Assembly: GCF_964355755.1 (NCBI RefSeq)
Contig: NC_092676.1
Coordinates: forward strand, 23,888,871-23,952,870
DNA: 64,000 nt
Direction of reading: 5' to 3'
Origin: Antedon mediterranea
Lineage: Eukaryota; Animalia; Echinodermata
Part shown: positions 18,001-46,075 of the stretch, in pieces
Position numbering within the stretch: position 1 is the first letter of the stretch
Layout of the letters: every line of letters begins with the position of its first letter
The notes under the pieces: model-generated
The model's input: the letters and a program-made list of their open reading frames with translations, nothing else
Databases searched by the model: none
Told to the model about the DNA's origin: nothing
Translations under genes and position numbers: made by a program

Positions 18001-20560
18001 ATTGATACTGTATTTGTGAGAAAATGGTGGATTGTTCCTGGGAGTCACTTGGTGGGATTATACTAGGGTACCTCCTTAGTTGTCCAGTAGAAGTTAGAGT
18101 GGGACCACTGGTCCCGTTTACTCAGCCTTCATCTTTTAAATATGAATGTAACTCATTTACGATTTAAAAAATATAGTGAAATTAGATACTGTATTTGTGA
18201 GAAAACGGCGGATTGTTCCTGGGAGTCACATGGTGGGATTATACTAAGGTACGTCCTTAGCCGTCCAGTATAAGTTAGAGTGCGACCACTGGTTCCGTTT
18301 ACTCAGCCCTCATCTTTTAAATTTGAGTGTAACTCAATTACGGTAAAAAAATTTTAAAATATAGTGAAAATTGATACTGTATTTGTGAGAAAATGGCGGA
18401 TTGTTCCTGGGAGTCACTTGGTGGGATTATACTAGGGTACCTCCTTAGTTGTCCAGTAGAAGTTAGAGTGGGACCACTGGTCCCGTTTACTCAGCCCTCA
18501 TCTTTTAAATATGAATGTAACTCATTTACGATTTAAAAAATATAGTGAAATTTGATACTGTATTTGTGAGAAAATGGCGGATTGTTCATGGGAGTCACTT
18601 GGTGGGATTATACTAGGGTGCATCCTTAGTCGTCGAGTATAAGTTAGAGTGGGACCACTGGTCCCGTTTACTCAGCCCTCATCTTTTAAATTTGAGTGTA
18701 ACTCATTTACGATTTTAAAAATATAGTGAAATTAGATACTGTATTTGTGAGAAAACGGCGGATTGTTCCTGGGAGTCACTTGGTGGGATTATACTAAGGT
18801 ACGTCCTTAGTCGTCCAGTATAAGTTAGAGTGCGACCACTGGTTCCGTTTACTCAGTCCTCATCTTTTAAATTTGAGTGTAACTCAATTACGGTAAAAAA
18901 ATTTTAAAATATAGTGAAAATTGATACTGTATTTGTGAGAAAATGGCGGATTGTTCCTGGGAGTCACTTGGTGGGATTATACTAGGGTACCTCCTTAGTT
19001 GTCCAGTAGAAGTTAGAGTGGGACCACTGGTCCCGTTTACTCAGCCTTCATCTTTTAAATATGAATGTAACTCATTTACGATTTAAAAAATATAGTGAAA
19101 TTAGATACTGTATTTGTGAGAAAACGGCGGATTGTTCCTGGGAGTCACATGGTGGGATTATACTAAGGTACGTCCTTAGCCGTCCAGTATAAGTTAGAGT
19201 GCGACCACTGGTTCCGTTTACTCAGCCCTCATCTTTTAAATTTGAGTGTAACTCAATTACGGTAAAAAAAATTTAAAATATAGTGAAAATTGATACTGTA
19301 TTTGTGAGAAAATGGCGGATTGTTCCTGGGAGTCACTTGGTGGGATTATACTAGGGTACCTCCTTAGTTGTCCAGTAGAAGTTAGAGTGGGACCACTGGT
19401 CCCGTTTACTCAGCCCTCATCTTTTAAATATGAATGTAACTCATTTACGATTTAAAAAATATAGTGAAATTTGATACTGTATTTGTGAGAAAATGGCGGA
19501 TTGTTCATGGGAGTCACTTGGTGGGATTATACTAGGGTACCTCCTTAGTTGTCCAGTATAAGTTAGAGTGGGACCACTGGTCCCGTTTACTCAGCCCTCA
19601 TCTTTAAAATTTGAGTGTAACTCATTTACGATTTTTAAAATATAGTGAAATTTGATACTGTATTTGTGAGAAAACGGCGGATTGTTCCTGAGAGTCACTT
19701 GGTGGGATTATACTAGGGTACCCCCTTAGTCGTCCAGTATAAGTTAGAGTGGGACCACTGGTCCCGTTTACTCAGCCCTCATCTTTTAAATTTGAGTGTA
19801 ACTCATTTACGATTTTTAAAATATAGTGAAATTTGATACTGTATTTGTGAGAAAACGGCGGATTGTTCCTGAGAGTCACTTGGTGGGATTATACTAGGGT
19901 GCATCCTTAGTCGTCCAGTATAAGTTAGAGTGGGACCACTTGTCCTGTTTACTCAGCCCTCATCTTTTAAATTTGAGTGTAACTCATTTACGATTTTAAA
20001 AATATAGTGAAATTAGATACTGTATTTGTGAGAAAACGGCGGATTGTTCCTGGGAGTCACATGGTGGGATTATACTAAGGTACGTCCTTAGTCGTCCAGT
20101 ATAAGTTAGAGTGCGACCACTGGTTCCATTTACTCAGCCCTCATCTTTTAAATTTGAGTGTAACTCAATTACGGTAAAAAAATTTAAAATATAGTGAAAA
20201 TTGATACTGTATTTGTGAGAAAATGGCGGATTGTTCCTAGGAGTCACTTGGTGGGATTATACTAGGGTACCTCCTTAGTTCTCCAGTAGAAGTTAGAGTT
20301 GGACCACTGGTCCCGTTTACTCAGCCCTCATCTTTAACGTTTGAGTGTAACTCAATTACGATTAATATTTTAAAATATAGTGAAATTTGATACTGTATTT
20401 GTGAGAAAATGGCGGATTGTTCCCGAGAGTCACTTGGTGGGATTATACTAGCGTACCTCCTTAGTTGTCCAGTTTAAGTTAGAGTGGGACCACTGGTCCC
20501 GTTTACTCAGCCCTTATCTTTAAAATTTGAGTGTAACTCAATTACGATTAATATTTTAAA
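15088..20560 (+). repeat. 181-bp satellite, left arm of foldback A (~30 copies)
   Basis: Tandem 181-187 bp units containing the palindromes GGGACCACTGGTCCC and AGGGTACC. Confidence 0.97.
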
Positions 20561-23500
20561 GATGAGGGCTGAGTAAACGGGACCAGTGGTCCCACTCTAA
20601 CTTATACAGGATGACTAAAGAGGTACTCTAGTATAATCCCACCAAGTGACTCTCAGGAACAATACGCCGTTTTCTCACAAATACAGTATCAAATTTCACT
20701 ATATTTTAAAAATCGTAAATGAGTTACACTCAAATTTTAAAGATGAGGGCTGAGTAAACGGGACCAGTGGTCCCACTCTAACTTATACTGGACGACTAAG
20801 GGTGTACCCTAGTATAATCCCACCAAGTGACTCTCAGGAACAATCCGCCGTTTTCTCACAAATACAGTTTCAAATTTCACTATATTTTAAAAATCGTAAA
20901 TGAGTTACACTCAAATTTTAAAGATGAGGGCTGAGTAAACGGGACCAGTGGTCCCACTCTAACTTATACTGGAAAACTAAGAGGGTACCTTAGTATAATC
21001 CCACCAAGTGACTCCCAGGAACAATCCGCCATTTTCTCACAAATACAGTATCAAATTTCACTATATTTTAAAAATTTTATCGTAATTGAGTTACACTCAA
21101 ATTTAAAAGATGAGGGCTTAGTAAACGGGACCAGTGGTCCCACTCTAACTTATACTGGACGACTAGGGAGGCACCGTAGTATAATCCCACCAAGTGACTC
21201 TCAGGAACAATCCGCCGTTTTCTCACAAATACAGTATCAAATTTCACTATATTTTAAAATATTAATCGTAATTGAGTTACACTCAAACGTTAAAGATGAG
21301 GGCTGAGTAAACCGGACCAGTGGTCCCACTCTAACTGATACTGGACGACTAAGGGGGTAACCTAGTATAATCCCACTAAGTGACTCCCAGGAACAATCCG
21401 CCATTTTCTCACAAATACAGTATCAAATTTCACTATATTTTAAAATATTAATCGTAATTGAGTTACACTCAAACGTTAAAGATGAGGGCTGAGTAAACGG
21501 GACCAGTGGTCCCACTCTAACTTATACTGGACAACTGAGGAGGTACCCTAGTATAATCCCACAAAGTGACTCCCAGGAACAATCCGCCATTTTCTCACAA
21601 ATACAGTATCAATTTTCACTATATTTTAAAATTTTTTATCGTAATTGAGTTACACTCAAATTTAAAAGATGAGGGCTGAGTAAACGAAACCAGTGGTCGC
21701 ACTCTAACTTATACTGGACAACTAAGGACGTACCTTAGTATAATCCCACCATGTGACTCCCAGGAACAATCCGCCGTTTTCTCACAAATACAGTATCTAA
21801 TTTCACTATATTTTTAAAATCGTAATTGAGTTACACTCAAATGTTAAAGATGAGGGCTGAGTAAACGGGACCAGTAGTCCCACTCTAACTTATACTGGAC
21901 AACTAAGGAGGTACCCTAGTATAATCCCACCAAGTGACTCTCAGGAAAAATCCGCCGTTTTCTCACAAATACAGTATCACATTTCACTATATTTTAAAGA
22001 TCATAAATGAGTTAAACTCAAATTTTAAAGATGAGGGCTGAGTAAACGGGACCAGTGGTCCCACTCTAATTTATACTGGACAACTAAGGAGGTACCCTAG
22101 TATAATCCCACCAAGTGACTCCCAGGAACAATCCGCCATTTTCTCACAAATACAGTATCAAATTTCACTATATTTTTTTAATCGTAAATGAGTTACACTC
22201 AAATTTAAAAGATGAGGGCTGAGTAAACAGTACCAGTGGTCCCACTCTAACTTATACTGTACGAGTAAGGAGGTACCCTAGTATAATCCCACCAAGTGAC
22301 TCTCAGGAACAATCCGCCGTTTTCTCACAAATACAGTTTCAAATTTCACTATATTTTAAAAATCGTAAATGAGTTACACTCAAATTTTAAAGATGAGGGC
22401 TGAGTAAACGGGACTAGTGGTCCCACTCTAACTTATACTGGACGACTAAGGGGGTACCCTAGTATAATCCCACCAAGTGACTCCCAGGAACAATCCGCCA
22501 TTTTTCACAAATACAGTATCAAATTTCACTATATTTTAAAAATCGTAAATGAGTTACACTCAAATTTTAAAGATGAGGGCTGAGTAAACCGGACCAGTGG
22601 TCCCACTCTAACTTATACTGGACGACTAAGGGGGTAACCTAGTATAATCCCACCAAGTGACTCCCAGGAACAATCCGCCATTTTTACACAAATACAGTAT
22701 CAAATTTCACTATATTTTAAAATATTAATCGTAATTGAGTTACACTCAAATGTTAAAGATGAGGGCTGAGTAAACGGGACCAGTGGTCCCACTCTAACTT
22801 ATACAGGATGACTAAAGAGGTACTCTAGTATAATCCCACCAAGTGACTCTCAGGAACAATACGCCGTTTTCTCACAAATACAGTATCAAATTTCACTATA
22901 TTTTAAAAATCGTAAATGAGTTACACTCAAATTTTAAAGATGAGGGCTGAGTAAACGGGACCAGTGGTCCCACTCTAACTTATACTGGACGACTAAGGGT
23001 GTACCCTAGTATAATCCCACCAAGTGACTCTCAGGAACAATCCGCCGTTTTCTCACAAATACAGTTTCAAATTTCACTATATTTTAAAAATCGTAAATGA
23101 GTTACACTCAAATTTTAAAGATGAGGGCTGAGTAAACGGGACCAGTAGTCCCACTCTAACTTATACTGGACAACTAAGAGGGTACCCTAGTATAATCCCA
23201 CCAAGTGACTCCCAGGAACAATCCGCCATTTTCTCACAAATACAGTATCAAATTTCACTATATTTTAAAAATTTTATCGTAATTGAGTTACACTCAAATT
23301 TAAAAGATGAGGGCTGAGTAAACGGGACCAGTGGTCGCACTCTAACTTATACTGGACGACTAAGGACGTACCTTAGTATAACCCCACCATGTGACTCCGA
23401 GGAACAATCCGCCGTTTTCTTACAAATACAGTATCAAATTTCACTATATTTTTAAAATCGTAAATGAGTTACACTCAAATTTAAAAGATGAGGGCTTAGT

Positions 23501-26500
23501 AAACGGGACCAGTGGTCCCACTCTAACTTATACTGGAAAACTAAGAGGGTACCTTAGTATAATCCCACCAAGTGACTCCCAGGAACAATCCGCCATTTTC
23601 TCACAAATACAGTATCAAATTTCACTATATTTTAAAAATTTTATCGTAATTGAGTTACACTCAAATTTAAAAGATGAGGGCTTAGTAAACGGGACCAGTG
23701 GTCCCACTCTAACTTATACTGGACGACTAGGGAGGCACCGTAGTATAATCCCACCAAGTGACTCTCAGGAACAATCCGCCGTTTTCTCACAAATACAGTA
23801 TCAAATTTCACTATATTTTAAAATATTAATCGTAATTGAGTTACACTCAAACGTTAAAGATGAGGGCTGAGTAAACCGGACCAGTGGTCCCACTCTAACT
23901 GATACTGGACGACTAAGGGGGTAACCTAGTATAATCCCACTAAGTGACTCCCAGGAACAATCCGCCATTTTCTCACAAATACAGTATCAAATTTCACTAT
24001 ATTTTAAAATATTAATCGTAATTGAGTTACACTCAAACGTTAAAGATGAGGGCTGAGTAAACGGGACCAGTGGTCCCACTCTAACTTATACTGGACAACT
24101 GAGGAGGTACCCTAGTATAATCCCACAAAGTGACTCCCAGGAACAATCCGCCATTTTCTCACAAATACAGTATCAATTTTCACTATATTTTAAAATTTTT
24201 TATCGTAATTGAGTTACACTCAAATTTAAAAGATGAGGGCTGAGTAAACGAAACCAGTGGTCGCACTCTAACTTATACTGGACAACTAAGGACGTACCTT
24301 AGTATAATCCCACCATGTGACTCCCAGGAACAATCCGCCGTTTTCTCACAAATACAGTATCTAATTTCACTATATTTTTAAAATCGTAATTGAGTTACAC
24401 TCAAATGTTAAAGATGAGGGCTGAGTAAACGGGACCAGTAGTCCCACTCTAACTTATACTGGACAACTAAGGAGGTACCCTAGTATAATCCCACCAAGTG
24501 ACTCTCAGGAAAAATCCGCCGTTTTCTCACAAATACAGTATCACATTTCACTATATTTTAAAGATCATAAATGAGTTAAACTCAAATTTTAAAGATGAGG
24601 GCTGAGTAAACGGGACCAGTGGTCCCACTCTAATTTATACTGGACAACTAAGGAGGTACCCTAGTATAATCCCACCAAGTGACTCCCAGGAACAATCCGC
24701 CATTTTCTCACAAATACAGTATCAAATTTCACTATATTTTTTTAATCGTAAATGAGTTACACTCAAATTTAAAAGATGAGGGCTGAGTAAACAGTACCAG
24801 TGGTCCCACTCTAACTTATACTGTACGAGTAAGGAGGTACCCTAGTATAATCCCACCAAGTGACTCTCAGGAACAATCCGCCGTTTTCTCACAAATACAG
24901 TTTCAAATTTCACTATATTTTAAAAATCGTAAATGAGTTACACTCAAATTTTAAAGATGAGGGCTGAGTAAACGGGACTAGTGGTCCCACTCTAACTTAT
25001 ACTGGACGACTAAGGGGGTACCCTAGTATAATCCCACCAAGTGACTCCCAGGAACAATCCGCCATTTTTCACAAATACAGTATCAAATTTCACTATATTT
25101 TAAAAATCGTAAATGAGTTACACTCAAATTTTAAAGATGAGGGCTGAGTAAACCGGACCAGTGGTCCCACTCTAACTTATACTGGACGACTAAGGGGGTA
25201 ACCTAGTATAATCCCACCAAGTGACTCCCAGGAACAATCCGCCATTTTTACACAAATACAGTATCAAATTTCACTATATTTTAAAATATTAATCGTAATT
25301 GAGTTACACTCAAATGTTAAAGATGAGGGCTGAGTAAACGGGACCAGTGGTCCCACTCTAACTTATACAGGATGACTAAAGAGGTACTCTAGTATAATCC
25401 CACCAAGTGACTCTCAGGAACAATACGCCGTTTTCTCACAAATACAGTATCAAATTTCACTATATTTTAAAAATCGTAAATGAGTTACACTCAAATTTTA
25501 AAGATGAGGGCTGAGTAAACGGGACCAGTGGTCCCACTCTAACTTATACTGGACGACTAAGGGTGTACCCTAGTATAATCCCACCAAGTGACTCTCAGGA
25601 ACAATCCGCCGTTTTCTCACAAATACAGTTTCAAATTTCACTATATTTTAAAAATCGTAAATGAGTTACACTCAAATTTTAAAGATGAGGGCTGAGTAAA
25701 CGGGACCAGTAGTCCCACTCTAACTTATACTGGACAACTAAGAGGGTACCCTAGTATAATCCCACCAAGTGACTCCCAGGAACAATCCGCCATTTTCTCA
25801 CAAATACAGTATCAAATTTCACTATATTTTAAAAATTTTATCGTAATTGAGTTACACTCAAATTTAAAAGATGAGGGCTGAGTAAACGGGACCAGTGGTC
25901 GCACTCTAACTTATACTGGACGACTAAGGACGTACCTTAGTATAACCCCACCATGTGACTCCGAGGAACAATCCGCCGTTTTCTTACAAATACAGTATCA
26001 AATTTCACTATATTTTTAAAATCGTAAATGAGTTACACTCAAATTTAAAAGATGAGGGCTTAGTAAACGGGACCAGTGGTCCCACTCTAACTTATACTGG
26101 ACGACTAGGGAGGCACCGTAGTATAATCCCACCAAGTGACTCTCAGGAACAATCCGCCGTTTTCTCACAAATACAGTATCAAATTTCACTATATTTTAAA
26201 ATATTAATCGTAATTGAGTTACACTCAAACGTTAAAGATGAGGGCTGAGTAAACCGGACCAGTGGTCCCACTCTAACTGATACTGGACGACTAAGGGGGT
26301 AACCTAGTATAATCCCACTAAGTGACTCCCAGGAACAATCCGCCATTTTCTCACAAATACAGTATCAAATTTCACTATATTTTAAAATATTAATCGTAAT
26401 TGAGTTACACTCAAACGTTAAAGATGAGGGCTGAGTAAACGGGACCAGTGGTCCAACTCTAACTTATACTGGACAACTGAGGAGGTACCCTAGTATAATC

Positions 26501-29500
26501 CCACCAAGTGACTCCCAGGAACAATCCGCCATTTTCTCACAAATACAGTATCAATTTTCACTATATTTAAAAAATTTTATCGTAATTGAGTTACACGCAA
26601 ATTAAAAGATGAGGGCTGAGTAAACGGGACCAGTGGTCGCACTCTAACTTATACTGGACGACTAAGGACGTACCTTAGTATAACCCCACCATGTGACTCC
26701 GAGGAACAATCCGCCGTTTTCTCACAAATACAGTATCAAATTTCACTATATTTTGAAATATTAATCGTAATTGAGTTACACTCAAACGTTAAAGATGAGG
26801 GCTGAGTAAACGGGACCAGTGGTCCCACTCTAACTTCTACTGGACAACTAAGGAGGTACCCTAGTATAATCCCACAAAGTGACTCCCAGGAACAATCCGC
26901 CATTTTCTCACAAATACAGTATCAAATTTCACTATATTTTTTTAATCGTAAATGAGTTACACTCAAATTTGAAAGATGAGGGCTGAGTAAACAGTACCAG
27001 TGGTCCCACTCTAACTTATACTGTACGACTAAGGAGGTACCCTAGTATAATCCCACCAAGTGACTCTCAGGAACAATCCGCCGTTTTCTCACAAATACAG
27101 TTTCAAATTTCACTATATTTTAAAAATCGTAAATGAGTTACACTCAAATTTTAAAGATGAGGGCTGAGTAAACGGGACTAGTGGTCCCACTCTAACTTAT
27201 ACTGGACGACTAAGGGGGTACCCTAGTATAATCCCACCAAGTGACTCCCAGGAACAATCCGCCATTTTTTCACAAATACAGTATCAAATTTCACTATATT
27301 TTAAAAATCGTAAATGAGTTACACTCAAATTTTAAAGATGAGGGCTGAGTAAACCGGACCAGTGGTCCCACTCTAACTTATACTGGACGACTAAGGGGGT
27401 AACCTAGTATAATCCCACCAAGTGACTCCCAGGAACAATCCGCCATTTTCTCACAAATACAGTATCAAATTTCACTATATTTTAAAATATTAATCGTAAT
27501 TGAGTTACACTCAAATGTTAAAGATGAGGGCTGAGTAAACGGGACCAGTGGTCCCACTCTAACTTATACTGGACAACTAAGGAGGTACCCTAGTATAATC
27601 CCACCAAGTGACTCCCAGGAACAATCCGCCATTTTCTCACAAATACAGTATCAAATTTCCCTATATTTTAAAAATCGTAAATGAGTTACACTCAAATTTT
27701 AAAGATGAGGGCTGAGTAAACCGGACCAGTGGTCCCACTCTAACTTATACTGGACGACTAAGGGGGTAACCTAGTATAATCCCACCAAGTGACTCCCAGG
27801 AACAATCCGCCATTTTCTCACAAATACAGTATCAAATTTCACTATATTTTTTTAATCGTAAATGAGTTACACTCAAATTTAAAAGATGAGGGCTGAGTAA
27901 ACAGTACCAGTGGTCCCACTCTAACTTATACTGTACGACTAAGGAGGTACCCTAGTATAATCCCACCAAGTGACTCCCAGGAACAATCCACCATTTTCTC
28001 ACAAATACAGTATCAAATTTCACTATATTTTAAAAATCGTAAATGAGTTACACTCAAATTTTAAAGATGAGGGCTGAGTAAACCGGACCAGTGGTCCCAC
28101 TCTAACTTATACTGGACGACTAAGGACGTACCCTAGTATAATCCCACCAAGTGACTCTCAGGAACAATCCGCCGTTTTCTCACAAATACAGTTTCAAATT
28201 TCACTATATTTTAAAAATTGTAAATGAGTTACACTCAAATTTTAAAGATGAGGGCTGAGTAAATGGGACCAGTGGTCCCACTCTAACTTATACTGGACGA
28301 CTAAGGGGGTACCCTAGTATAATCCCACCAAGTGACTCCCAGGAACAATCCGCCATTTTTTCACAAATACAGTATCAAATTTCACTATATTTTAAAAATC
28401 GTAAATGAGTTACACTCAAATGTTAAAGATGAGGGCTGAGTAAACCGGACCAGTGGTCCCACTCTAACTTATACTGGACGACTAAAGGGGTAACCTAGTA
28501 TAATCCCACCAAGTGACTCCCAGGAACAATCCGCCATTTTCTCACAAATACAGTATCAAATTTCACTATATTTTAAAATATTAATCGTAATTGAGTTACA
28601 CTCAAACGTTAAAGATGAGGGCTGAGTAAACGGGACCAGTGGTCCCACTCTAACTTATACTGGACAACTAAGGAGGTACCCTAGTATAATCCCACCAAGT
28701 GACTCCCAGGAACAATCCGCCATTTTCTCACAAATACAGTATCAAATTTCACTATATTTTAAAAATCGTAAATGAGTTACACTCAAATTTTAAAGATGAG
28801 GGCTGAGTAAACCGGACCAGTGGTCCCACTCTAACTTATACTGGACGACTAAGGGGGTAACCTAGTATAATCCCACCAAGTGACTCCCAGGAACAATCCG
28901 CCATTTTCTCACAAATACAGTATCAAATTTCACTATATTTTAAAATATTAATCGTAATTGAGTTACACTCAAACGTTAAAGATGAGGGCTGAGTAAACGG
29001 GACCAGTGGTCCCACTCTAACTTATACTGGACAACTAAGGAGGTACCCTAGTATAATCCCACCAAGTGACTCCCAGGAACAATCCGCCATTTTCTCACAA
29101 ATACAGTATCAAATTTCACTATATTTTAAAAATCGTAAATGAGTTACACTCAAATTTTAAAGATGAGGGCTGAGTAAACCGGACCAGTGGTCCCACTCTA
29201 ACTTATACTGGACGACTAAGGGGGTAACCTAGTATAATCCCACCAAGTGACTCCCAGGAACAATCCGCCATTTCCTCACAAATACAGTATCAAATTTCAC
29301 TATATTTTTTTAATCGTAAATGAGTTACACTCAAATTTAAAAGATGAGGGCTGAGTAAACAGTACCAGTGGTCCCACTCTAACTTATACTGTACGACTAA
29401 GGAGGTACCCTAGTATAATCCCACCAAGTGACTCTCAGGAACAATCCGCCGTTTTCTCACAAATACAGTTTCAAATTTCACTATATTTTAAAAATTGTAA

Positions 29501-30940
29501 ATGAGTTACACTCAAATTTTAAAGATGAGGGCTGAGTAAATGGGACCAGTGGTCCCACTCTAACTTATACTGGACGACTAAGGGGGTACCCTAGTATAAT
29601 CCCACCAAGTGACTCCCAGGATCAGGAACAATCCGCCATTTTTTCACAAATACAGTATCAAATTTCACTATATTTTAAAAATCGTAAATGAGTTACACTC
29701 AAATGTTAAAGATGAGTGCTGAGTAAACCGGACCAGTGGTCCCACTCTAACTTATACTGGACGACTAAGGGGGTAACCTAGTATAATCCCACCAAGTGAC
29801 TCCCAGGAACAATCCGCCATTTTCTCACAAATACAGTATCAAATTTCACTATATTTTAAAATATTAATCGTAATTGAGTTACACTCAAACGTTAAAGATG
29901 AGGGCTGAGTAAACGGGACCAGTGGTCCCACTCTAACTTATACTGGACAACTAAGGAGGTACCCTAGTATAATCCCACCAAGTGACTCCCAGGAACAATC
30001 CGCCATTTTCTCACAAATACAGTATCAAATTTCACTATATTTTAAAAATCGTAAATGAGTTACACTCAAATTTTAAAGATGAGGGCTGAGTAAACCGGAC
30101 CAGTGGTCCCACTCTAACTTATACTGGACGACTAAGGGGGTAACCTAGTATAATCCCACCAAGTGACTCCCAGGAACAATCCGCCATTTTCTCACAAATA
30201 CAGTATCAAATTTCACTATATTTTAAAATATTAATCGTAATTGAGTTACACTCAAACGTTAAAGATGAGGGCTGAGTAAACGGGACCAGTGGTCCCACTC
30301 TAACTTATACTGGACAACTAAGGAGGTACCCTAGTATAATCCCACCAAGTGACTCCAAGGAACAATCCGCCATTTTCTCACAAATACAGTATCAATTTTC
30401 ACTCTATTTTAAAAATTTTATCGTAATTGAGTTACACTCAAATTTAAAAGATGAGGGCTGAGTAAACGGGACCAGTGGTCGCACTCTAACTTATACTGGA
30501 CGACTAATGGGGTACCCTAATATAATCCCACCAAGTGAATCCCAGGAACAATCCGCCATTTTCTCACAAATACAATATCAATTTTCACTATATTTTAAAA
30601 ATTTTATCGTAATTGAGTTACACTCAAATTTAAAAGATGAGGGCTGAGTAAACGGAACCAGTGGTCGCACTCTAACTTATACTGAACGACTAAGGGGGTA
30701 CCCTAGTATAATCCCACCAAGTGACTCCCAGGAACAATCCGCCATTTTCTCACAAATACAGTTTCAAATTTAACTATATTTTAAAAATCGTAATTGAGTT
30801 ACACTCAAATTTTAAAGATGAGGGCTGAGTAAACGGGACCAGTGGTCCCACTCTAACTTATACTGGACGACTAAGGGGGTACCCTAGTATAATCCCACCA
30901 AGTGAATCCCAGGAACAATCCGCCGTTTTTCTCACAAATA
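20553..30940 (-). repeat. 181-bp satellite, inverted right arm of foldback A (~57 copies)
   Basis: Reverse complement of the same monomer; followed by an inverted copy (30941-31051) of the unique subterminal sequence 14976-15087. Confidence 0.97.
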
Positions 30941-31327
30941 TTTAATTCCTAATACCATAAAAGCCATAAGTAACAATGAAAATGTAAAGAATGCACAAAC
31001 GGCGTTTCATAGTTATTGTTGGCTGGAAAAAATAAAAGTGGGCTGGCTTATGAGCTATATTGTGTAGTCGTTTTTTGATAACTGAGAACTATCAGTGTGT
31101 ATCATCCTCGTACATAACTGTTTCTTAGTTGTAATAAAGATCACATTATTATAACATCTAGCATGTTATTATAATATATAAATTTATAGGTACCAATACT
31201 AATATTTTTATTTTCAAAAAAATTCGATAAGTATTTTAATAATACTAAAACAACATTCTTAATATAACAAATGATATGTAGTACTACTAAATCAATGTCT
31301 AATGCATAAAGGACTATGTACAGTATT

Positions 31328-34300
31328 ATGATCAGTGTAGTTACAATTTGATAACTGAGCACGCATCTTTTAATATCTACCTCATCAATAATTAGCATTG
31401 ATATCATATATCAGATTGTTGGATATGATCAGTGTAGTTACAATTTGATAACTGAGCACGCATCTTTTAATATCTACCTCATCAATAATTAGCATTGATA
31501 TCATATATCAGATTGTTGGATATGATCAGTGTAGTCATAATTTGATAACTGAGCACGCATCTTTTAATATCTAGGCCTACCTCATCAATAATTATTATTA
31601 ATAATCTATATCACATTGTTCGATATAATCAGTGTAGTCAAAATTTGATAACTGAGCACGCATCTTTTAATATCTACCTCATCAATAATTATTACTAATA
31701 ATCTATATCACATTGTGCGATATGATCAGTGTAGTCAGAATTTGATAACTGAGCACGCATCTTTTAATATCTACCTCATCAATAATTATTATTAATAATC
31801 TATATCACATTGTTCGATATAATCAGTGTAGTCAAAATTTGATAACTGAGCACGCATCTTTTAATATCTACCTCATCAATAATTATTACTAATATATCAC
31901 ATTGTGCGATATGATCAGTGTAGTCAGAATTTGATAACTGAGCACGCATCTTTTAATATCTACCTCATCAATAATTATTATTAATATCTTATATCACATT
32001 GTTGGATATGATCAGTGTAGTCATAATTTGATAACTGAGCACGCATCTTTAAATGTTTACCTCATCAATAATTATTATTAATAATCTATAGCACATTGTT
32101 TGATATGATCATTGTAGTCATAATTTGATAACTGAGCACGCACCTTTTAATATCTACCTCATCAATAATTAATGTTAATAATCTAAATCACATTGTTGGA
32201 TATGATCAGTGTAGTCATAATTTGATTACTGAGCACGCATCTTTTAATATCTACCTCATCAATAATTATTATTAATATCTTATATCACATTGTTGGATAT
32301 GATCAGTGTAGTCATAATTTGATAACTGAGCACGCATCTTTAAATATCTACATCATCAATAATTATTAATAATAATCTATATCACATTTTGGGATATGAT
32401 CAGTGTAGTCATAATTTGATAACTGAGCACGCATCTTTTAATATCTACCTCATCAATAATTATTATTAATATCTTATATCACATTGTTGGATATGATCAG
32501 TGTAGTCAGAATTTGATAACTGAGCACGCATCTTTAAATATCTTACCTCATCAATAATTATTATTAATAATCTATATCACATTGTTGGATATAATCAGTG
32601 TAGTCATAATTTGATAACTGAGCACGCATCTTTTAATATCTACCTCATCAATAATTATTATTAATAATCTATAGCACATTGTTTGATATGATCAGTGTAG
32701 TCATAATTTGATAACTGAGCACGCATCTTTAAATATCTACATCATCAATAATTATTAATAATAATCTATATCACATTTTTGGATATGATCAGTGTAGTCA
32801 TAATTTGATAACTGAGCACGCATCTTTAAATATCCACCTAATCAATAATTATTAATAATATCATATATCACATTGTTCGATATGATCAGTGTAGTCAGAA
32901 TTTGATAACTGAGCACGCATCTTTTAATATCTACCTCATCAATAATTATTATTAATATCTTATATCACATTGTTGGATATGATCAGTGTAGTCAGAATTT
33001 GATAACTGAGCACGCATCTTTTAATATCTACCTCATCAATAATTATTATTAATAATCTATAGCACATTGTTTGATATGATCAGTGTAGTCATAATTTGAT
33101 AACTGAGCACGCATCTTTAAATATCTACCTCATCAATAATTATTATTAATAATCTATAGCACATTGTTTGATATGATCAGTGTAGTCAGAATTTGATAAC
33201 TGAGCACGCATCTTTAAATATCTACATCATCAATAATTATTAATAATAATCTATATCACATTGTGGGATATGATCAGTGTAGTCATAATTTGATAACTGA
33301 GCACGCATCTTTTAATATCTACCTCATCAATAATTATTATTAATATCTTATATCACATTGTTGGATATGATCAGTGTAGTCAGAATTTGATAACTGAGCA
33401 CGCATCTTTCAATATCTACCTCATCAATAATTGTTATTAATATCTTATATCACATTGTTGGATATGATCAGTGTAGTCAGAATTTGATAACTGAGCACGC
33501 ATCTTTTAATATCTATTTCATCAATAATATTATTAATACTCTACATCACACTGTTGGATATAATCAGTGTAGTCATAATTTGATAACTGAGCACGCATCT
33601 TTAAATATCTACCTCATCAATAATTATTATTAATAATCTATGTCACATTGTTGGATATGATCTGTATATTCATAATTTGTTATAACGCATCTTTTAATAT
33701 CTACCTAATCAATAATAATTATTAATATCTTATATCACATTGTTGGATATGATCAGTGTAGTCAGAATTTGATAACTGAGCACGCATCTTTTAATATCTA
33801 CCTCATCAATAATTATTATTAATAATCTATAGCACATTGTTTGATATGATCAGTGTAGTCATAATTTGATAACTGAGCACGCATCTTTAAATATCTACCT
33901 CATCAATAATTATTATTAATAATCTATAGCACATTGTTTGATATGATCAGTGTAGTCAGAATTTGATAACTGAGCACGCATCTTTTAATATCTACCTCAT
34001 CAATAATTATTATTAATAATCTATAGCACATTGTTTGATATGATCAGTGTAGTCATAATTTGATAACTGAGCACGCATCTTTTAATATCTACCTCATCAA
34101 TGATTAATGTTAATAATCTAAATCACATTGTTGGATATGATCAGTGTAGTCATAATTTGATAACTGAGCACGCATCTTTAAATATCTACCTCATCAATAA
34201 TTATTATTAATAATCTATATCACATTGTTGGATATAATCAGTGTAGTCATAATTTGATAACTGAGCACGCATCTTTAAATATCTACATCATCAATAATTA

Positions 34301-35200
34301 TTAATAATAATCTATATCACATTTTGGGATATGATTAGTGTAGTCATAATTTGATAACTGAGCACGCATCTTTCAATATCTACATCATCAATAATTATTA
34401 TTAATATCTTATATCACATTGTTTGATATGATCAGTGTAGTCATAATTTGATAACTGAGCACGCATCTTTAAATATCTACATCATCAATAATTATTAATA
34501 ATAATCTATATCACATTGTGGGATATGATCAGTGTAGTCATAATTTGATAACTGAGCACGCATCTTTAAATATCTACCTCATCAATAATTATTATTAAGA
34601 TCTTATATCACAATGTTGGATACGATTAGTGTAGTCAGAATTTGATAACTGAGCACGCATCTTTAAATATCTACATCATCAATAATTATTAATAATAATC
34701 TATATCACATTGTGGGATATGATCAGTGTAGTCATAATTTGATAACTGAGCACGCATCTTTTAATATCTACCTCATCAATAATTATTATTAATATCTTAT
34801 ATCACATTGTTGGATATGATCAGTGTAGTCAGAATTTGATAACTGAGCACGCATCTTTCAATATCTACCTCATCAATAATTGTTATTAATATCTTATATC
34901 ACATTGTTGGATATGATCAGTGTAGTCAGAATTTGATAACTGAGCACGCATCTTTTAATATCTATTTCATCAATAATATTATTAATACTCTACATCACAC
35001 TGTTGGATATAATCAGTGTAGTCATAATTTGATAACTGAGCACGCATCTTTAAATATCTACCTCATCAATAATTATTATTAATAATCTATGTCACATTGT
35101 TGGATATGATCTGTATATTCATAATTTGTTATAACGCATCTTTTAATATCTACCTAATCAATAATAATTATTAATACTTAATGTTGGATATGATCAGTGT
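31328..35200 (+). repeat. 97-bp AT-rich satellite, left arm of foldback B (~40 copies)
   Basis: Unit ATATGATCAGTGTAGTCATAATTTGATAACTGAGCACGCATC...CACATTGTTGG, period 97 (e.g. 31423 to 31520). Confidence 0.96.
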
Positions 35201-35879
35201 GATTTTGTTAGATTTACTGTATACAAGAGATCGAGTCGATGGATTTTGAAAATGTGTTATTCTTTTGTTCCTAATTACCCTATTGATTTGTATCCGTTTG
35301 CTGTTTAAATTTATACTTTTAAGAACGCATCGTTTATGATGAACGTGTGCCGTTGTAAAAATAAAAATATTCCATATCTTTTTATGTTTGATATGTATTG
35401 TAGGGGCCATCATGAGACATGCTTTGGCTTCTATTGAGGGTCCCAGTTCTTCTTAACAGAATAAATGTGCAGTGAATGAATAATTTGATAAATGAGGACG
35501 TGTGTTTTAACATCGATCTATTCAGACCGTAATACTCTTCCAGAAATGATATGTTGCTATAATAGGCCTATGACAAATTTCCATTACATTAATAATTCAA
35601 TTAAGATTTGAAATGTGTCAGAAATACTAAAGAAATCCAGTAATCTTATTGATTAATAATTATTTATACCATTTCTGATGAACGAACAGAAAACTAAACT
35701 TGCAGCCAATCAAAAAGCTGCTGTACTGTATAAGTAGGGAATTTTAAGTAGGAGTTGTTTTAAATGTCATTGGTCTCGGCTAATCAGTTATTGCCATTTG
35801 ACTATGATAGGCATCTTTATTACCAAACAATATTAAAATGTAATGATTTCCTTCACTTTTTACAACCTAGTTTGTGTTT

Positions 35880-38800
35880 TAAAATGTCAATTTTGGATAA
35901 ATTTACAGATTTTACTATTTAAACTGCGTAAACTTAATGCTAACTTTAAAAAAACACCCACAAACATCATCCAAACAACTTAATATTGATTATACCACTA
36001 CAAGAACTATAAAAGAGGACAATTTATGAAATAATTTCATTGAAATAGCTCTAGGTTTGAATTTTTAGGGTAAAAGATGTCAATTTTGGATAAATTTACA
36101 GATTTTGCCATGTAAACTGTGCAAACTTTAAAAAAACACCCCACAAACATCATCCAAACCACTTAATATTGAGTATACCACTACTAGAACTATAAAAAAG
36201 GACAATTTATGAAATAATTTTATTGAAATAGCTCTAGGTTTGAATTTTTAGGGTAAAAAATGTCAATTTTGGATAAATTTACAGATTTTACCATGTAAAC
36301 TGCGTAAACTTAATGCAAACTTTTAAAAAACACCCACAAACATCATCCAAACAACTTAATATTGATTATACCACTACTAGAACTATAAAAGAGGACAATT
36401 TATGAAATAATTTTATTGAAATAGCTCTGGTTTGAATTTTTAGGGTAAAAAATGTCAATTTTGGATAAATTTACAGATTTTGCCATGTAAACTGCGTAAA
36501 CTTAATGCTAACTTAACAAAAACACCCCACAAACATCATTCAAACAACTTAATATTGATTATATCACTACTAGAACTGTAAAAGAAGAGAATTTTTGAAA
36601 TCAATTTATTGAAATAGCTCTAAGTTTGACTTTTTAGGGTGAAAAATGTCAATTTTGGATAAATTTACAGATTTTACCATGTAAACTGCGTAAACTTAAT
36701 GCTAACTTAACAAAAACACCCCACAAACATCATCCAAACAACTTAATATTGATTATACCACTACTAGAACTATAAAAGAGGACAATTTATGAAATCAATT
36801 TATTGAAATAGCTCTAAGTTTGACTTTTTAGGGTGAAAAATGTCAATTTTGGATAAATTTACAGATTTTACCATTTAAACAGCGTAAACTTAATGCAAAC
36901 TTTAAAAAAACACCCACAAACATCATCCAAACCACTTAATATTGATTATACCACTACAAGAACTATAAAAGAGGACAATTTATGAAATAATTTTATTGAA
37001 ATAGCTCTAGGTTTGAATTTTTAGGGTAAAAGATGTCAATTTTGGATAAATTTACAGATTTTGCCATGTAAACTGTGCAAACTTTAAAAAAACACCCCAC
37101 AAACATCATCCAAACCACTTAATATTGAGTATACCACTACTAGAACTATAAAAGAGGACAATTTATGAAATAATTTTATTGAAATAGCTCTAGGTTTGAA
37201 TTTTTAGGGTAAAAAATGTCAATTTTGGATAAATTTACAGATTTTACCATGTAAACTGCGTAAACTTAATGCAAACTTTTAAAAAACACCCACAAACATC
37301 ATCCAAACAACTTAATATTGATTATACCACTACTAGAACTATAAAAGAGGACAATTTATGAAATAATTTTATTGAAATAGCTCTGGTTTGAATTTTTAGG
37401 GTAAAAAATGTCAATTTTGGATAAATTTACAGATTTTGCCATGTAAACTGCATAAACTTAATGCTAACTTAACAAAAACACCCCACAAACATCATTCAAA
37501 CAACTTAATATTGATTATATCACTACTAGAACTGTAAAAAAAGAGAATTTTTGAAATCAATTTATTGAAATAGCTCTAAGTTTGACTTTTTAGGGTGAAA
37601 AATGTCAATTTTGGATAAATTTACAGATTTTACCATGTAAACTGCGTAAACTTAATGCTAACTTAACAAAAACACCCCACAAACATCATCCAAACAACTT
37701 AATATTGATTATACCACTACTAGAACTATAAAAGAAGACAATTTATGAAATCAATTTATTGAAATAGCTCTAAGTTTGACTTTTTAGGGTGAAAAATGTA
37801 AATTTTGGATAAATTTACAGATTTTACCATTTAAACAGCGTAAACTTAATGCAAACTTTAAAAAAACACCCACAAACATCATCCAAACCACTTAATATTG
37901 ATTATACCACTACAAGAACTATAAAAGAGGACAATTTATGAAATAATTTTATTGAAATAGCTCTAGGTTTGAATTTTTAGGGTAAAAGATGTCAATTTTG
38001 GATAAATTTACAGATTTTGCCATGTAAACTGTGCAAACTTTAAAAAAACACCCCACAAACATCATCCAAACCACTTAATATTGAGTATACCACTACTAGA
38101 ACTATAAAAGAGGACAATTTATGAAATAATTTTATTGAAATAGCTCTAGGTTTGAATTTTTAGGGTAAAAAATGTCAATTTTGGATAAATTTACAGATTT
38201 TACCATGTAAACTGCGTAAACTTAATGCAAACTTTTAAAAAACACCCACAAACATCATCCAAACAACTTAATATTGATTATACCACTACTAGAACTATAA
38301 AAGAGGACAATTTATGAAATAATTTTATTGAAATAGCTCTGGTTTGAATTTTTAGGGTAAAAAATGTCAATTTTGGATAAATTTACAGATTTTGCCATGT
38401 AAACTGCGTAAACTTAATGCTAACTTAACAAAAACACCCCACAAACATCATTCAAACAACTTAATATTGATTATATCACTACTAGAACTGTAAAAAAAGA
38501 GAATTTTTGAAATCAATTTATTGAAATAGCTCTGAAGTTTGACTTTTTAGGGTGAAAAATGTCAATTTTGGATAAATTTACAGATTTTACCATTTAAACT
38601 GCGTAAACTTAATGCAAACTTTAAAAAAACACCCACAAACATCATCCAAACAACTTAATATTGATTATACCACTACAAGAACTATAAAAGAGGACAATTT
38701 ATGAAATAATTTCATTGAAATAGCTCTAGGTTTGATTTTTTAGGGTGAAAAATGTAAACTTTGGATAAATTGACAGATTTTACCATGTAAACTGTGCAAA

Positions 38801-39750
38801 CTTTAAAAAAAACACCCCACAAACATCATCCAAACAACTTAATATTGATTATACCACTACTAGAACTATAAAAGAGGACAATTTATGAAATCATTTTATT
38901 AAAATAGTTCTAGGTATAAATTGACACATTTTACCATGTAAACTGTGCAAACTTTTAAAAAACACCCCACAAACATCATCCAAACCACTTAATATTGATT
39001 ATATCATTATTAGAACTATAAAAGAGGACAATTTATGAAATAATTTTATTGAAATGGCTCTAAGATTTTTTTAGGAGTGAAAAATGTCAATTTTGGATAA
39101 TTGACAGATTTTACCATGTAAACTGCGTAAACTTAATTAAAAAATACCCCACAAACATTATTCAAACAATTGAATACTGATTATACCACTACTAGAACTA
39201 TAAAAGAAGACAATTTATGAAATCATTTTATTAAAATAGTTCTAGGTTTGACATTTTTGGGGTGATTATGAAATAATTTTATTGAAATAGCTCTAGGAAT
39301 AAATTGACACATTTTACCATGTAAACTGTGCAAACTTTTAAAAAACACCCCACAAACATCATCCAAACCACTTTGATTATATCATTATTAGAACCATAAA
39401 AAGAGGACAATTTATGAAATAATTTTATTGAAATGGCTCTAAGATTTTTTTAGGAGTGAAAAATGTCAATTTTGGATAATTGACAGATTTTACCATCTAA
39501 ACTGCGTAAACTTAATTAAAAAATACCCCACAAACATCATTCAAACAATTGAATACTGATTATACCACTACTAGAAATATAAAAGAAGACAATTTATAAA
39601 ATCATTTTATTATTAAATAGCTCTAGGTTTGACATTTTTGGGGTAAAAAACCACTTAATATTGATTATCACTAAAACTATAAAAGAAGACAACTTATGAA
39701 ATGATTTTATTGAAATAGGTCAAAGTTTGACCTTTTGGATAAATTGAACT
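35880..39750. repeat. ~193-bp satellite (~20 copies) with 956-bp pentamer higher-order repeat
   Basis: Units of 183-194 bp; the AAGATGTC/short variant recurs at 36077, 37033 and 37989; array decays after ~38900. Confidence 0.95.
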
Positions 39751-40625
39751 TTACAATGCAAAAAAGGCCATCTGCAATCATCCTTCAAACCACTTATTAT
39801 ATTAAGACAATATTAATATTTGAAGCAGATATAAAATGATGCATGCTCAGTTATCAAATGACTAGGCCTACACTGATCATATTTGATGGTATATAGACAA
39901 TTAATATTAATTATTGTTGAGGTAGTTCAAACTATGATTACACTGATCATATCCAAAATTGTGATATAGAATATTATTAATAGTTATGGAAAAGATAGAT
40001 ATTAAAAAACTAAACAGATCATATCCAACAGTTTGATATAGATTATTAATATTAATTAATGATGATGCAGATATTAAAAGATTTTTGCTCAGTTATCAAT
40101 TTATGACTACACTGATCATATCCAACTATGTGATATAGATTATTAATAATAATTATTGATGAAATAGATATTGAAAGATGCATGCTCAGTTATCAAATTA
40201 TGACTACACTAATCATATCCAACATTGTGATATAGATTATTAATAATAATTATTGATGAGGTAGATATTAAAAGATGCATGCTCAGTTATCAAACTATGA
40301 CTACACTGATCATATCCAACATTGTGATATAGGATATTATTAATAGTTATTGATAAGGTAGATATTAAAAAACCAAACAGATCATATCCAACAGTGTAAT
40401 ATAGATTATTAATATTAATTATTAATGAGGTAGATATTCTTCTTCTTTATTGTATCAAACAAAAACAATTTCAATACAAAAGGTAGCCAAGGTATAGCCA
40501 AAGCTAATCAAGCTTGGTACCTTTTATCTTAAACTAACTTAAGCTACGAAATTAACAAATGAATAACAGAACTTAAAAGAAAATAAAAATTTGATAACGT
40601 CAAAAACCAAACAAAAAATGTTGAA

Positions 40626-41719
40626 TCTATATTATAAGTGAGAGAGTTTGTCTGTTTGTCTGTTTGTTCGTTATACAAAATTTTGTTACTGCACATAATC
40701 TTACATATGGGGTATCAAAATGACCGCAATTGTACCGGGAATGTTCTAAGCTATATTTCAACATCATCCGCCACCTAGGATCCAAGTTAGGGACCAAAAT
40801 GTGGTCAAAACCCCCACTTTCGATGTTTGTTCGTTATAAAAATTTCTGTGTCTGCACGTAACCATACGTATGGGGTATCAAAATGATGGCAATTGTACCC
40901 GGAAGGTTTTAAACTACATTTTAAAAAATTCCCCCGACTCCTGGGGTTTTTGTGGAATGGGTGGGGGGGGGGGGGGTGGTTGTGTGGTGGCTTGTGATGT
41001 CATTTTTGCTAGGGCTCGGGGTTGTAGGCTATCGAATTGTAAAATTATACTACAAAAGTTTTACAGTATTTGAATTATCCTCAGCAAGGCGTTTGGGGAA
41101 ATATAGATATAGCTATACATATTTCATTCATTAAACAATATGACACCTATTCAATTACACATTAACTGCCACTGAGGGATTATGGGTTGGGAGTGATAAT
41201 AATATAAATTGTACTGGAACCGGCTTCAACAGATCACCCAGTGTATCTGGCGTGTGTTTTTTGTAGAGGGAGGAGGAGCGAAAATACTAGCGTAATGAAG
41301 TAGCCTATATGATTGGATTGTACTAGGAAAAGTTACTAAATTTGAACTGTCCAGGGGAGGAGTTAAGGTTTGTTGATGGTGGCTGGGGTGGTGAAAGGAG
41401 AAAGAAGGCTGGGTGCCCGCAGTATCTAAATTACAAATTTTAATTATCAGCCAATATGACACCTATTCATTTACACAATTTACAACGTACTACAACCATT
41501 ATTAGACCCATCGTAGTTATGAATACTCCTCTCAATTCGAAGCTTAGGTTGAATTGAATTTGTCCATCACTGGGAAGATTTTGTTTTTAAGAAAGAGTAT
41601 GGGGTGTTGTTGAGGGGTCGATGTTGGTGAGTATAGACAGATACTGGCGTCGGGTGTTATGTACTGAGAAGGCTGTAAACTAATTTTGAAACCCGCCCTG
41701 GGGCGGGTATAATTGCTAG
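40626..41719 (+). mobile_element. Non-autonomous Helitron, copy 1 (internally deleted)
   Basis: 5' TCTATATTATA, GTTT/GTCT microsatellite, 3' hairpin ACCCGCCC-TG-GGGCGGGT, terminal CTAG; preceded by A. Confidence 0.9.
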
Positions 41720-43174
41720 TCTATATTATAAGTGAGAGAGTTTGTCTGTTTGTTTGTTTGTCTGTTTGTTCGTTATACAAAATTTTGTTACTGCACATAA
41801 TCTTACATATGGGGTATCAAAATGACCGCAATTGTACCGGGAATGTTCTAAGCTATATTTCAACATCATCCGCCACCTAGGATCCAAGTTAGGGACCAAA
41901 ATGTGGTCAAAACCCCCACTTTCGATGTTTGTTCGTTATAAAAATTTCTGTGTCTGCACGTAACCATACGTATGGGGTATCAAAATGATGGCAATTGTAC
42001 CCGGAAGGTTTTAAACTACATTTAAAAAAATTCCCCCGACTCCTGGGGTTTTTGTGGAATGGGTGGGGGGGGGGGGGTGGTTGTGTGGTGGTTTGTGATG
42101 TCATTTTTGCTAGGGCTCGGGGTTGTAGGCTATCGAATTGTAAAATTATACTACAAAAGTTTTACAGTATTTGAATTATCCTCAGCAAGGCGTTTGGGGA
42201 AATATAGATATAGATATACATATTTTATTCATTAAACAATATGACACCTATTCAATTACACATTTAGCAAAGTACTTTAACCATATCCAGCTATTTATTG
42301 GTCTCTTGGATTGCCTCATTACAGACATCCATACCTGTGTGAACATACACATGTTGTTTACTGTTACTGTGTTCAACTACATCACCAATCCTCCAAGGAA
42401 AAAAACGTACATTGTGGGAGAGTGGGGTTGGGAGATAGGGTTTGGGAGTTTGGTTTCAGGAGAGAGTGGGGATTTTGCTTACACCAGAATTGTGGTTGGA
42501 AACTTTTAAAGTATTTAATCATCCCTGGGAAGCGGATGGGAGTTTGGGGTGGGGATGTACATGTAGGCCTATCACCATGACCGAAACTGTATTTGGAATG
42601 TTTTAAACTACATTTGAAAACTGCCACTGAGGGATTATGGGTTGGGAGTGATAATAATATAAATTGTACTGGAACCGGCTTCAACAGATCACCCAGTGTA
42701 TCTGGGGTGTGTTTTTTGTAGGGGGAGGAGGAGCGAAAATACTAGCGTAATGAAGTAGCCTATATGATTGGATTGTACTAGGAAAAGTTACTAAATTTGA
42801 ACTGTCCAGAGGAGGAGTTAAGGTTTGTTGATAGTGGCTGGGGTGGTGAAAGGAGAAAGAAGGCTGGGTGCCCGCAGTATCTAAATTACAAATTTTAATT
42901 ATCAGCCAATATGACACCTATTCATTTACACAATTTACAACGTACTACAACCATTATTAGACCCATCGTAGTTATGAATACTCCTCTCAATTCGAAGCTT
43001 AGGTTGAATTGAATTTGTCCATCACTGGGAAGATTTTGTTTTTAAGAAAGAGTATGGGGTGTTATTGAGGGGTGGATGTTGGTGAGTATAGACAGATACT
43101 GGCGTCGGGTGTTATGTACTGAGAAGGCTGTAAACTAATTTTGAAACCCGCCCTGGGGCGGGTATAATTGCTAG
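41720..43174 (+). mobile_element. Non-autonomous Helitron, copy 2
   Basis: Same termini and hairpin; exact CTAG|TC head-to-tail junction; followed by T; no TSD. Confidence 0.9.
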
Positions 43175-45319
43175 TAATAAATAAATAACATAACATAAAG
43201 TGCTGTATGTACTATGCTGTAATAAACAAAACCATATCAGTTCAATAGATAATATCTGATGAATTCACAATATATAAAACATTGTAAATTATAGATTATT
43301 CTTTTATATACTTAAATAAAAGTAATTCTAAAGATGTATGCTCAGTTATCAAATTATGACTACAATGATCATATCCAACAATGTGATATAAATTATTAAT
43401 AATAATTATTGATGAAATAGATATTGAAAGATGCGTGCTCAGTTATCAAATTATGACTACACTGATCATATCCAACATTGTGATATAGGATATTATTAAT
43501 AGTCATTGATAAGGTAGATATTAAAAGATGCATGCTCAGTTATCATATTATGACTACACTGATCATATTGAACAATGCAATATAGATTATTAATATTAAT
43601 TATTGATGAGGTAGATATTAAAAGATGCATGCTCAGTTATCAAATTCTGACTACACTGATCATATCCAACAATGTGATATAGATTATTAATAATAATTAT
43701 TGAAAGGTAGATATTAAAAGATGCGTGCTCAGTTATCAAATTATGACTACACTGATCATATCGAACAATGTGATATAGATTATTAATATTAATTATTGAT
43801 GAGGTAGATATTAAAAGATGCGTGCTCAGTTATCAAATTCTGACTACACTGATCATTATCGAACAATGTGATATAAGATATTAATAATAATTATTGATGA
43901 GGTAGATATTAAAAGATGCGTGTTCAGTTATCAAATTCTGACTACACTGATCATATCCAACGTGATATAATATATTATTAATAGTTATTGATAAGGTATA
44001 TATTAAAAAACTAAACAGATCATATCCAACAATGTGATATAGGTTATTAATATTAATTAATGATGATGTAGATATTAAAAGATTATTGCTCAGTTATCAG
44101 ATTATGACTACACTGATCATAACCAACAATGTGATATAGATTATTAATAATAATTATTGATGAAATAGATATTGAAAGATGGGTGCTCAGTTATAAAATT
44201 ATGACTACACTGATCATATCCAACATTGTGATATAGGATATTATTAATAGTTATTGATAAGGTATATTAAAAGATGCGTGCTGTTATTAAATTATGACTA
44301 CACTGATCATATCGAACAATGTGATATAGATTATTAATATTAATTATTGATGAGGTAGATATTAAAAGATGCGTGCTCAGTTATCAAATTATGACTACAA
44401 TGATCATATCCAACAATGTGATATAAATTATTAATAATAATTATTGATGAAGGAAATAGATATTGAAAGATGTGTGCTCAGTTATCAAATTATGACTACA
44501 CTAATCATATCCAACATTGTGATATAGGATATTATTAATAGTCATTGATAAGGTATATATTAAAAGATGCGTGCTCAGTTATCAAATTCTGACTACACTG
44601 ATCATATCGAACAATGTGATATATTATGATATTAATATTAATTATTGATGAGGTAGATATTAAAAGATGCGTGCTCAGTTATCAAATTATGACTAACACT
44701 GATCATATCCTACATTGTGATATAGGACATTATTAATAGTTATTGATAAGGTAGTTATTAAAAGATGTGTGCTCAGTTATCAAATTTTGACTACAAAGAT
44801 CATATCCAACATTGTGATGTAGATTTATATTAATATTAATTATTGATGATGTAGATATTATAAGATGCATGCTAAGTTATCAAATTGTTACTACACGGAT
44901 CATATTTGATATTGTGATTGATGATATATTCATATAAAGAGTGTACAATACTCACAGTATTTTTTAATCCATCCACATGAAGAAGAGACACAAGAAGAGT
45001 TGTTTGAAATTGTGAAGCCTCACAACCTTACTAATTGTGATGACATTTAATATAATATTACAGCCATACACAAACAGTAAGGTAGTTAGGGTCACTACAA
45101 TCTATTAAAATAATTAACATTAATTTAACTGGAAACATTGTTAATTATCAGTTTGAGTTTGACTTTTGTCTCTTTTGTTGTAGAATTGAATCTCTGTTTA
45201 TCCATTGCTTTCAACCTGAAAATAAACAGGCCTAATACCTTGGCATTAGCAATGAAATCAACTTACACACTGATGAATCTTAATACTCCTACCTACCTAT
45301 CTAATATTTTATATAGATA

Positions 45320-46075
45320 GGCTGTCTATGACCCCCCAGCCTATCCCTAGCTAGGCCTATGCCTCTCTAGACCATTCTGCTGGCTAGCTAGCAAGGCCCT
45401 AGGCCTAGTCCTATAATTAATAGCACAGGTCTCATATAGATAGGCCTAGCTAGAGTGTTTAGACTGAGCCTGGTTATATGCCTATTTATTTAACTAGGAC
45501 TAGGCAGGCCTAATCAGCCTAAACTAAGGCCTAATAAACTAGTCTAGGCCCTAACTAGAATACATAGAGCTAGCTAGTTAGGCAGCCTAGGCCTAGCTAC
45601 TTATTAGCTAGTAAGTAGGCCTAGCTAGCTAGCCTACCAGTTCCCTAGTAGGGCCTAACCAGGTGGGCCTACTAGCCTAGCCTACTACTCTAGCTAGGCT
45701 AGATCTTTCTATTTCTAGGCCTAGCTAGACAAGGCTAGCCAGTAGGCCTAGTAGTACTAGGCCTACCTAGTTTTTAGGCCTAAACTATTAGCTAGAGTAG
45801 AGAGATGCTAGCCTAACTAGGCCTAGGCCCTAGCTAGCTAGCTAGGCCTAGACTAGGCTAGCCTATAGGCTATAGGCCTGCCCTCTACTAGCTAGGCCTA
45901 ATCTGCCCTTTTTGGAGGCTAAAATATTGTCTGAAATAAGCTATGACCTACAAATATAGCTTAACTATCTGTTTAAGGGTGACACTGATGATGGGTAATC
46001 AATAAAATATGCTTCTAAATCTACCTTTTTGGCTTGCAATCATAATATCCAGTCTAGCCTAGGCCTAGGCCTGCA
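45320..46075. repeat. TAGGCC/CTAG-rich low-complexity tract (similar tracts at 14460-14700 and 46650-46860)
   Basis: Dense AGGCCT, CTAG and TAGCTA short palindromes. Confidence 0.8.

Follow-up and report, generated by a model that had tools for sequence, protein, structure and literature searches.

The window analysed here is the whole stretch of 64,000 nucleotides taken from contig NC_092676.1 of Antedon mediterranea (assembly GCF_964355755.1; positions 23,888,871 to 23,952,870 of the forward strand). Gene-like regions, with genes split by introns, lie at 2220–14369, 49702–50256 and 57075–59560, and a large repeat element is placed between the first two of them. The exons to its left, which their motifs suggest to be DONSON-like (+) and SON-like (−), gave no match in a Pfam scan. 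On its right are S-adenosylmethionine decarboxylase-like exons (+), with a weak Pfam match to that family below the cut-off, and a T-box gene (PF00907, E 1e-29) that is presumably Brachyury-like, judging by a motif. The element sits between divergently oriented gene-like regions, namely the SON-like one (−) and the decarboxylase-like one (+). Further short tandem arrays were seen outside the element at 1944–2254, 7388–7742 and 62368–63123 (units of 83, 72 and 198 bp, respectively).

The element is a foldback structure of ~31.5 kb (14939–46428) whose 44-bp tips match perfectly and which is flanked by a duplication of 8 bp. It comprises two halves, here called A and B, with the following features:

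14931..14938 (+): left copy of the flanking duplication, 8 bp (CAGAGAAC)
14939..14982 (+): left 44-bp terminal inverted repeat (TIR)
14983..15086 (+): A-type subterminus, outer copy
15087..20549 (−): left arm of A, ~30 units of the 181-bp satellite
20529..20552 (no strand): centre of A, where the arms meet with ~22 bp of asymmetry and without a middle domain
20553..30940 (+): 181-bp satellite, right arm of A, ~57 units, with its own 12/14-unit higher-order duplications
30941..31051 (−): inner A-type end, consisting of the subterminus and only the last 7 bp of the tip (tip positions 38–44)
31052..31052 (no strand): single seam base, either inserted or the native base next to the B tip
31053..31118 (+): inner B-type end without tip, an end-type monomer of the 97-bp satellite
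31119..31326 (+): AT-rich spacer of the inner B end, 208 bp, with two variants among the public contigs
31327..35176 (+): left arm of B, ~40 units of the 97-bp satellite
35200..39800 (no strand): middle domain of B, ~680 bp of unique sequence plus a 193-bp satellite (35881 to ~39650)
39809..40438 (−): 97-bp satellite, inner block of the right arm of B
40626..43174 (+): two tandem Helitron-like copies nested in the right arm of B
43325..44934 (−): 97-bp satellite, outer block of the right arm of B
44935..46317 (no strand): spacer of the outer B end, 1383 bp
46318..46384 (−): outer B-type end, an end-type monomer of the 97-bp satellite
46385..46428 (−): right 44-bp TIR
46429..46436 (+): right copy of the flanking duplication, 8 bp

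The two outer tips (14939–14982 and 46385–46428) are complementary at 44 of 44 positions, as expected from the original prediction that A and B share their outermost 44 bp, and this complementarity does not extend outwards. The 8-bp duplication is exact (probability of a chance occurrence at that position ~7e-6, calculated from flank composition), its length being ambiguous between 8 and 9–11 bp as the direct match continues for three bases into the right tip. Within the left tip there are two 15-bp units, and a 12-bp core motif starts at tip positions 15 and 30, with a third copy at 65. Sea-urchin TU elements, to which the present element is likened by description only, are modular foldbacks with 15-bp terminal repeats, an 8-bp duplication and swappable middles.

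Terminal inverted repeats, a target site duplication and long inverted arms with internal tandem repeats were all found. By the criteria tested, the element is a foldback-type non-autonomous TIR element whose target duplication has an ambiguous length of 8–11 bp. No transposase was detected within it: the longest stop-to-stop frames outside the satellites encode 121 and 119 aa, and a Pfam scan of those two frames identified no family at cut-off. The window offers no coding copy by which to assign the element to Mutator, P/Galileo or another superfamily. By eye, the flanks (14905–14938 and 46429–46465) also show a weak likeness outside the 8-bp duplication, which would suit a degenerate 30-bp host repeat as the target. 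A search of metagenome contigs with an 18-base tip pattern retrieved five loci, none of which agrees with the window past 18–29 bases; given these short matches and a GC content of 45–58%, we took them as chance occurrences and rejected them as relatives.

Half A (~16 kb) consists of two opposed arrays of 181-bp units that meet with ~22 bp of asymmetry. When the arms were compared unit by unit, they showed a mean of 13 differences per unit and not one identical pair across arms (0 of 29 × 56), and each arm has a higher-order pattern of its own. The outer 366 columns, with three differences (99% alike), are the sole part of the arms to match so closely. By these counts, the arms have separate histories inside yet keep matching outer ends, as foldback arms do. 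A recent local inverted duplication of the left arm was considered as a source of the inner A end and discarded, because the arms mirror each other neither at the centre nor in the interior. In the right arm (20553–26200), units R3–R15 equal units R17–R29 with 0 differences, and a separate 14-unit period marks the left arm; the exact duplications of the right arm reflect either recent expansion or an assembly effect. At the centre of A (20529–20552) the arms join at a short AT-rich repeat, which forms a second palindrome seam that survived.

Half B (~15 kb) is built from opposed 97-bp arrays around a middle domain with a 193-bp satellite. The 66-bp piece at its inner end can be recognised as a degenerate 97-bp satellite monomer, agreeing with the array at 46 of 65 columns. 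Among the 59 monomers compared, the inner and outer end monomers are mutual nearest neighbours: they differ from each other at 13 positions and from any of the 57 array monomers at 20 or more. They also have 17 letters in common against the array majority, and 7 letters are private. Because of this mutual proximity and of the 17 common letters, the inner B piece truly corresponds to an element end. Past the 66 bp, the B ends have no detectable homology, since the alignment of the 208-bp with the 1383-bp spacer scored 24, a value reached in 151 of 200 shuffles. We likewise rejected the idea that the three satellites (of 181, 97 and 193 bp) are related by descent, or that the A subterminus is so related to the B ends, as similarity among them never rose above that of shuffled sequences (in the best case, 7 of 100 shuffles reached the score).

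Two other components of half B deserve mention. The nested pair at 40626–43174, inserted between an A and a T base, has a TC start, a GC hairpin and a CTAG end; we call it Helitron-like on account of these hallmarks. Its copies are non-coding and 97.6–98.9% alike, with an extra 355 bp in the second. The stretch 45300–46317, which lies inside the element, is CTAG-rich (51 per kb) and AGGCCT-rich, a composition that resembles the right flank, and is possibly captured host DNA.

The seam between the halves lies at 31051–31053. The inner A end (30941–31051) had been described as a near-perfect inverted copy of the outer A end minus its last 37 bp. Indeed, it carries a single mismatch (15072/30955) in 111 bp against inverted 14976–15086, and the pairing continues into the satellite; the 44-bp tip is entered at its position 38 (14976), so that 37 bp are absent. 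On the other side, 31053–31118 had been described as a roughly 80%-identical inverted copy of 46318–46383, and alignment of 31053–31117 gave 54 of 65 columns (83%). The significance of this similarity, on which the original prediction depended, was borne out by a local score of 73 as compared with a maximum of 37 in 60 shuffles, with the rest of the window searched on both strands. Chance or mere satellite likeness can therefore be rejected as the cause of the match, being contradicted by the shuffles and by the monomer comparison. Most or all of each inner TIR is missing, much as had been noted: the A-type end keeps 7 of 44 tip bases and the B-type end none. On the B side, the deletion ends at most one base from where the shared 44 bp, and hence self-complementarity, would end. 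In folding models, an intact seam reaches −54.7 kcal/mol and the observed seam −6.8 kcal/mol. Separate subtermini had also been claimed for A and B; they are unrelated between the halves, as proposed, with the qualification that B's own pair is alike over 66 bp only. Between inner and outer ends, divergence is 1% in A and 17% in B, an inequality expected of two elements.

Five public runs from two studies contain part of 30941–31330, and the contigs of four (X1, X2, X4 and X5), representing two organisms, were compared; depth values below are contig depths and no measure of copy number. In both organisms, A-type ends run into a full tip. A shortened A-type end (loose end behind 30973; X2, X4 and X5) is followed by a variant tip and by another flank, and may represent a subfamily with an internal deletion that sits at a different locus. 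B-left pieces were also met in other surroundings: two loose ends have the piece behind sequence that is neither A nor tip (before 31049 in X2, before 31060 in X1). As the X2 match starts at 31049, the four bases that precede 31053 may be part of B sequence that is not terminal. The B-left spacer exists in two variants, which differ at 16 positions over 183 bp and have depths of 98 and 105 in X2 and of 2273 and 2868 in X5, compared with 14 and 295 for one 1.5-kb contig. Modules of the element are therefore probably multi-copy, though contig depth is no copy number. The depth of the exact A subterminus relative to the B-left spacer was 2.2 (X2), 2.1 (X5) and 7.4 (X4); with all A variants included, the ratio was 3.5 (X2), 15.3 (X4) and 5.7 (X1).

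The original prediction had proposed a search for stand-alone A and B elements and for further loci with the seam. Full-tipped A ends were recovered, as just described, and among the 23 of 36 loose ends listed there was no free A, no free B and no B-left piece with a tip. The modules recur, and among the 32 of 388 pieces listed no contig bridges the seam with 31 letters per side, which we do not read as absence. In X1, the summed depth is low at 31052–31059 and leaves no room for a contig across these positions. Of 44 words sampled from 30941–31330, 14 were missing from the best runs, about seven of which are explained by visible differences (P = 0.005). There is thus a hint that the sampled runs lack the exact seam, but a single private substitution close to it would have the same effect. 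Other letters found in the window alone (the outer variant of 30955, and 31243) are also missing from the runs, which are for this reason probably not its source.

Two palindromic halves, identical outer 44-bp tips, an 8-bp duplication and truncated inner ends form the observed base for our preferred interpretation. We consider it rather likely that the seam marks where the junction of a tandem heterodimer was deleted, its partners being two non-coding foldbacks that have one terminus in common and probably entered the same target. A and B would once have been separate elements served by a single unseen transposase, and insertion of the second into the duplicated target of the first would have generated the order target–A–target–B–target. 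The inner tip–target–tip palindrome might then have extruded as a hairpin or been cut, its repair costing 81 tip bases (37 + 44) and any target copy. From then on only the outer tips would be usable, and a later jump is predicted to move all 31.5 kb. Such loss of a palindrome is not inevitable, because A's own near-palindromic centre, with its ~22 bp of asymmetry, has persisted. Moreover, B ends with 66 bp in common and non-homologous spacers would offer poor symmetry for a free foldback, which counts against the heterodimer.

The process has precedents. McGurk and Barbash (2018) found junction deletions in 24 of 36 hobo dimers and incomplete TIRs in Bari1 arrays; for P dimers they report double insertion at one site and a location near transcription starts, and they propose a hairpin as the cause of the deletions (PMC5932611). 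The hobo, P and Bari1 dimers of Drosophila resemble the present locus in that elements lie end to end with inner TIRs partly or wholly deleted, for which double insertion and a hairpin were proposed, and the position of our element between divergent gene-like regions recalls their enrichment near transcription starts (PMC5932611). They differ in joining copies of one family over a few kb, whereas here apparently unlike foldbacks of ~16 and ~15 kb, with unrelated satellites, have a common 44-bp tip (PMC5932611). In the model that Hikosaka and Kawahara proposed for Xstir hybrid MITEs, as summarised in PMC12628747, a nearby pair likewise forms a stem-loop whose loop is excised to leave a hybrid; that hybrid, however, is assembled from portions of a single MITE family and contributes to the origin of satellites, while our partners are nearly whole.

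As to architecture, Tetris of Drosophila virilis is also non-coding, with long inverted satellite arms, a middle domain and 8–10 bp duplications, and its satellite unit is ~80% similar to the terminal domain over a short stretch (PMC4079207). It is a single element with arms of at most 1.7 kb, compared with 4–10 kb here, and the available part of that report describes no fused pair (PMC4079207). Our literature search, in which subscription journals and old foldback papers were thinly covered, returned no account in which two unlike foldbacks with satellites form a dimer.

Other histories could produce a similar arrangement. Module shuffling, in which a B-left piece that had no tip left, or had never been terminal, acquired an A end through recombination or template switching over 3 bases of microhomology, would require no palindrome collapse. 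It would accommodate the X2 contig that matches from 31049 behind foreign sequence and the X1 contig with other sequence in that place, and the 16 differences between the spacer variants, which therefore mark an old module. Galileo chimeras of D. mojavensis, single elements with ends from two subfamilies, offer a parallel (PMC3573991). Those chimeras, however, are recombination products with non-matching flanks and without an inner end-to-end seam, unlike the present element with its matching duplication and inner seam (PMC3573991). In addition, each of the two odd contexts is known from a single contig and could represent a decayed copy, and it would be a coincidence under shuffling that the B side begins exactly one base past the end of the outer B tip. 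We accordingly hold shuffling to be unlikely. Alternatively, A-type left and B-type right ends might belong to one asymmetric family, the seam being the right-to-left joint of an excised circle or tandem dimer that became inverted inside another copy, with the same sequence order as A+B. Tip loss at circle joints has been proposed for Bari1 (PMC5932611), and the depth ratios of 2.2 and 2.1 are near the 2:1 of the structure. This history predicts approximately equal divergence of the inner ends, contrary to the 1% and 17% and the non-homologous B spacers found, and requires two extra inversion breakpoints; the ratios of 7.4 in X4, and of 3.5 in X2 with all A variants, depart from 2:1, and contig depth is in any case no copy number. 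A single asymmetric family consequently appears quite improbable.

An assembly artefact, with two repeat-rich loci misjoined at the seam, would be compatible with the lack of a bridging contig among the 32 of 388 pieces listed and with the excess of missing words. Yet matching outer tips and the duplication enclose both halves, and the seam has lost exactly the complementary part, for which a misjoin gives no reason; the runs that lack the words are, as noted above, probably not the source of the window. We give this explanation very little credence.

The original prediction went beyond fusion to a eukaryotic analogue of a composite transposon, bounded by one A end and one B end. The fusion itself, an A-type end joined to a B-type end with tips mostly or wholly lost, agrees with our data. 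The composite step is not established by the outer duplication and does not follow from the locus, because double insertion at one target leaves an identical outer duplication without joint movement. Two element ends adjoin with loss of TIRs, as in a dimer, and a single base, rather than cargo, separates them. Depth ratios of 2.2 and 2.1 fit the prediction of joint movement and those of 7.4 and 5.7 do not, contig depth again being no copy number. Nor is the framing new, as there are precedents in PMC6431247, PMC9910405 and PMC5932611. The foldback-bounded Ising TE (PMC6431247) and the Ac macrotransposons (PMC9910405) show that two elements can delimit a single mobile unit by their outer ends; they differ in having host DNA between the elements and observed movement, whereas here the elements abut and their movement as a unit is a prediction. 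With tip loss at dimer seams and eukaryotic composites already known, the locus is, by analogy, a tidy example of a known process, and no new enzyme or chemistry is implied.

It is conceivable, though we think it doubtful, that the fused A+B unit constitutes a spreading 31-kb non-coding family that has jumped as a whole since the loss of its inner tips and carried three unrelated satellites to gene starts. If the heterodimer interpretation is true, it would extend inner-tip loss, known from same-family dimers of Drosophila, to unlike and very large foldbacks in another animal, at base resolution. A mobile fused unit would explain mismatched arms in modular foldbacks and the joint transport of several satellites, here 31 kb between divergent genes. 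Should such a family indeed spread, deletion at a dimer seam would be a birth route of giant foldbacks with mismatched ends.
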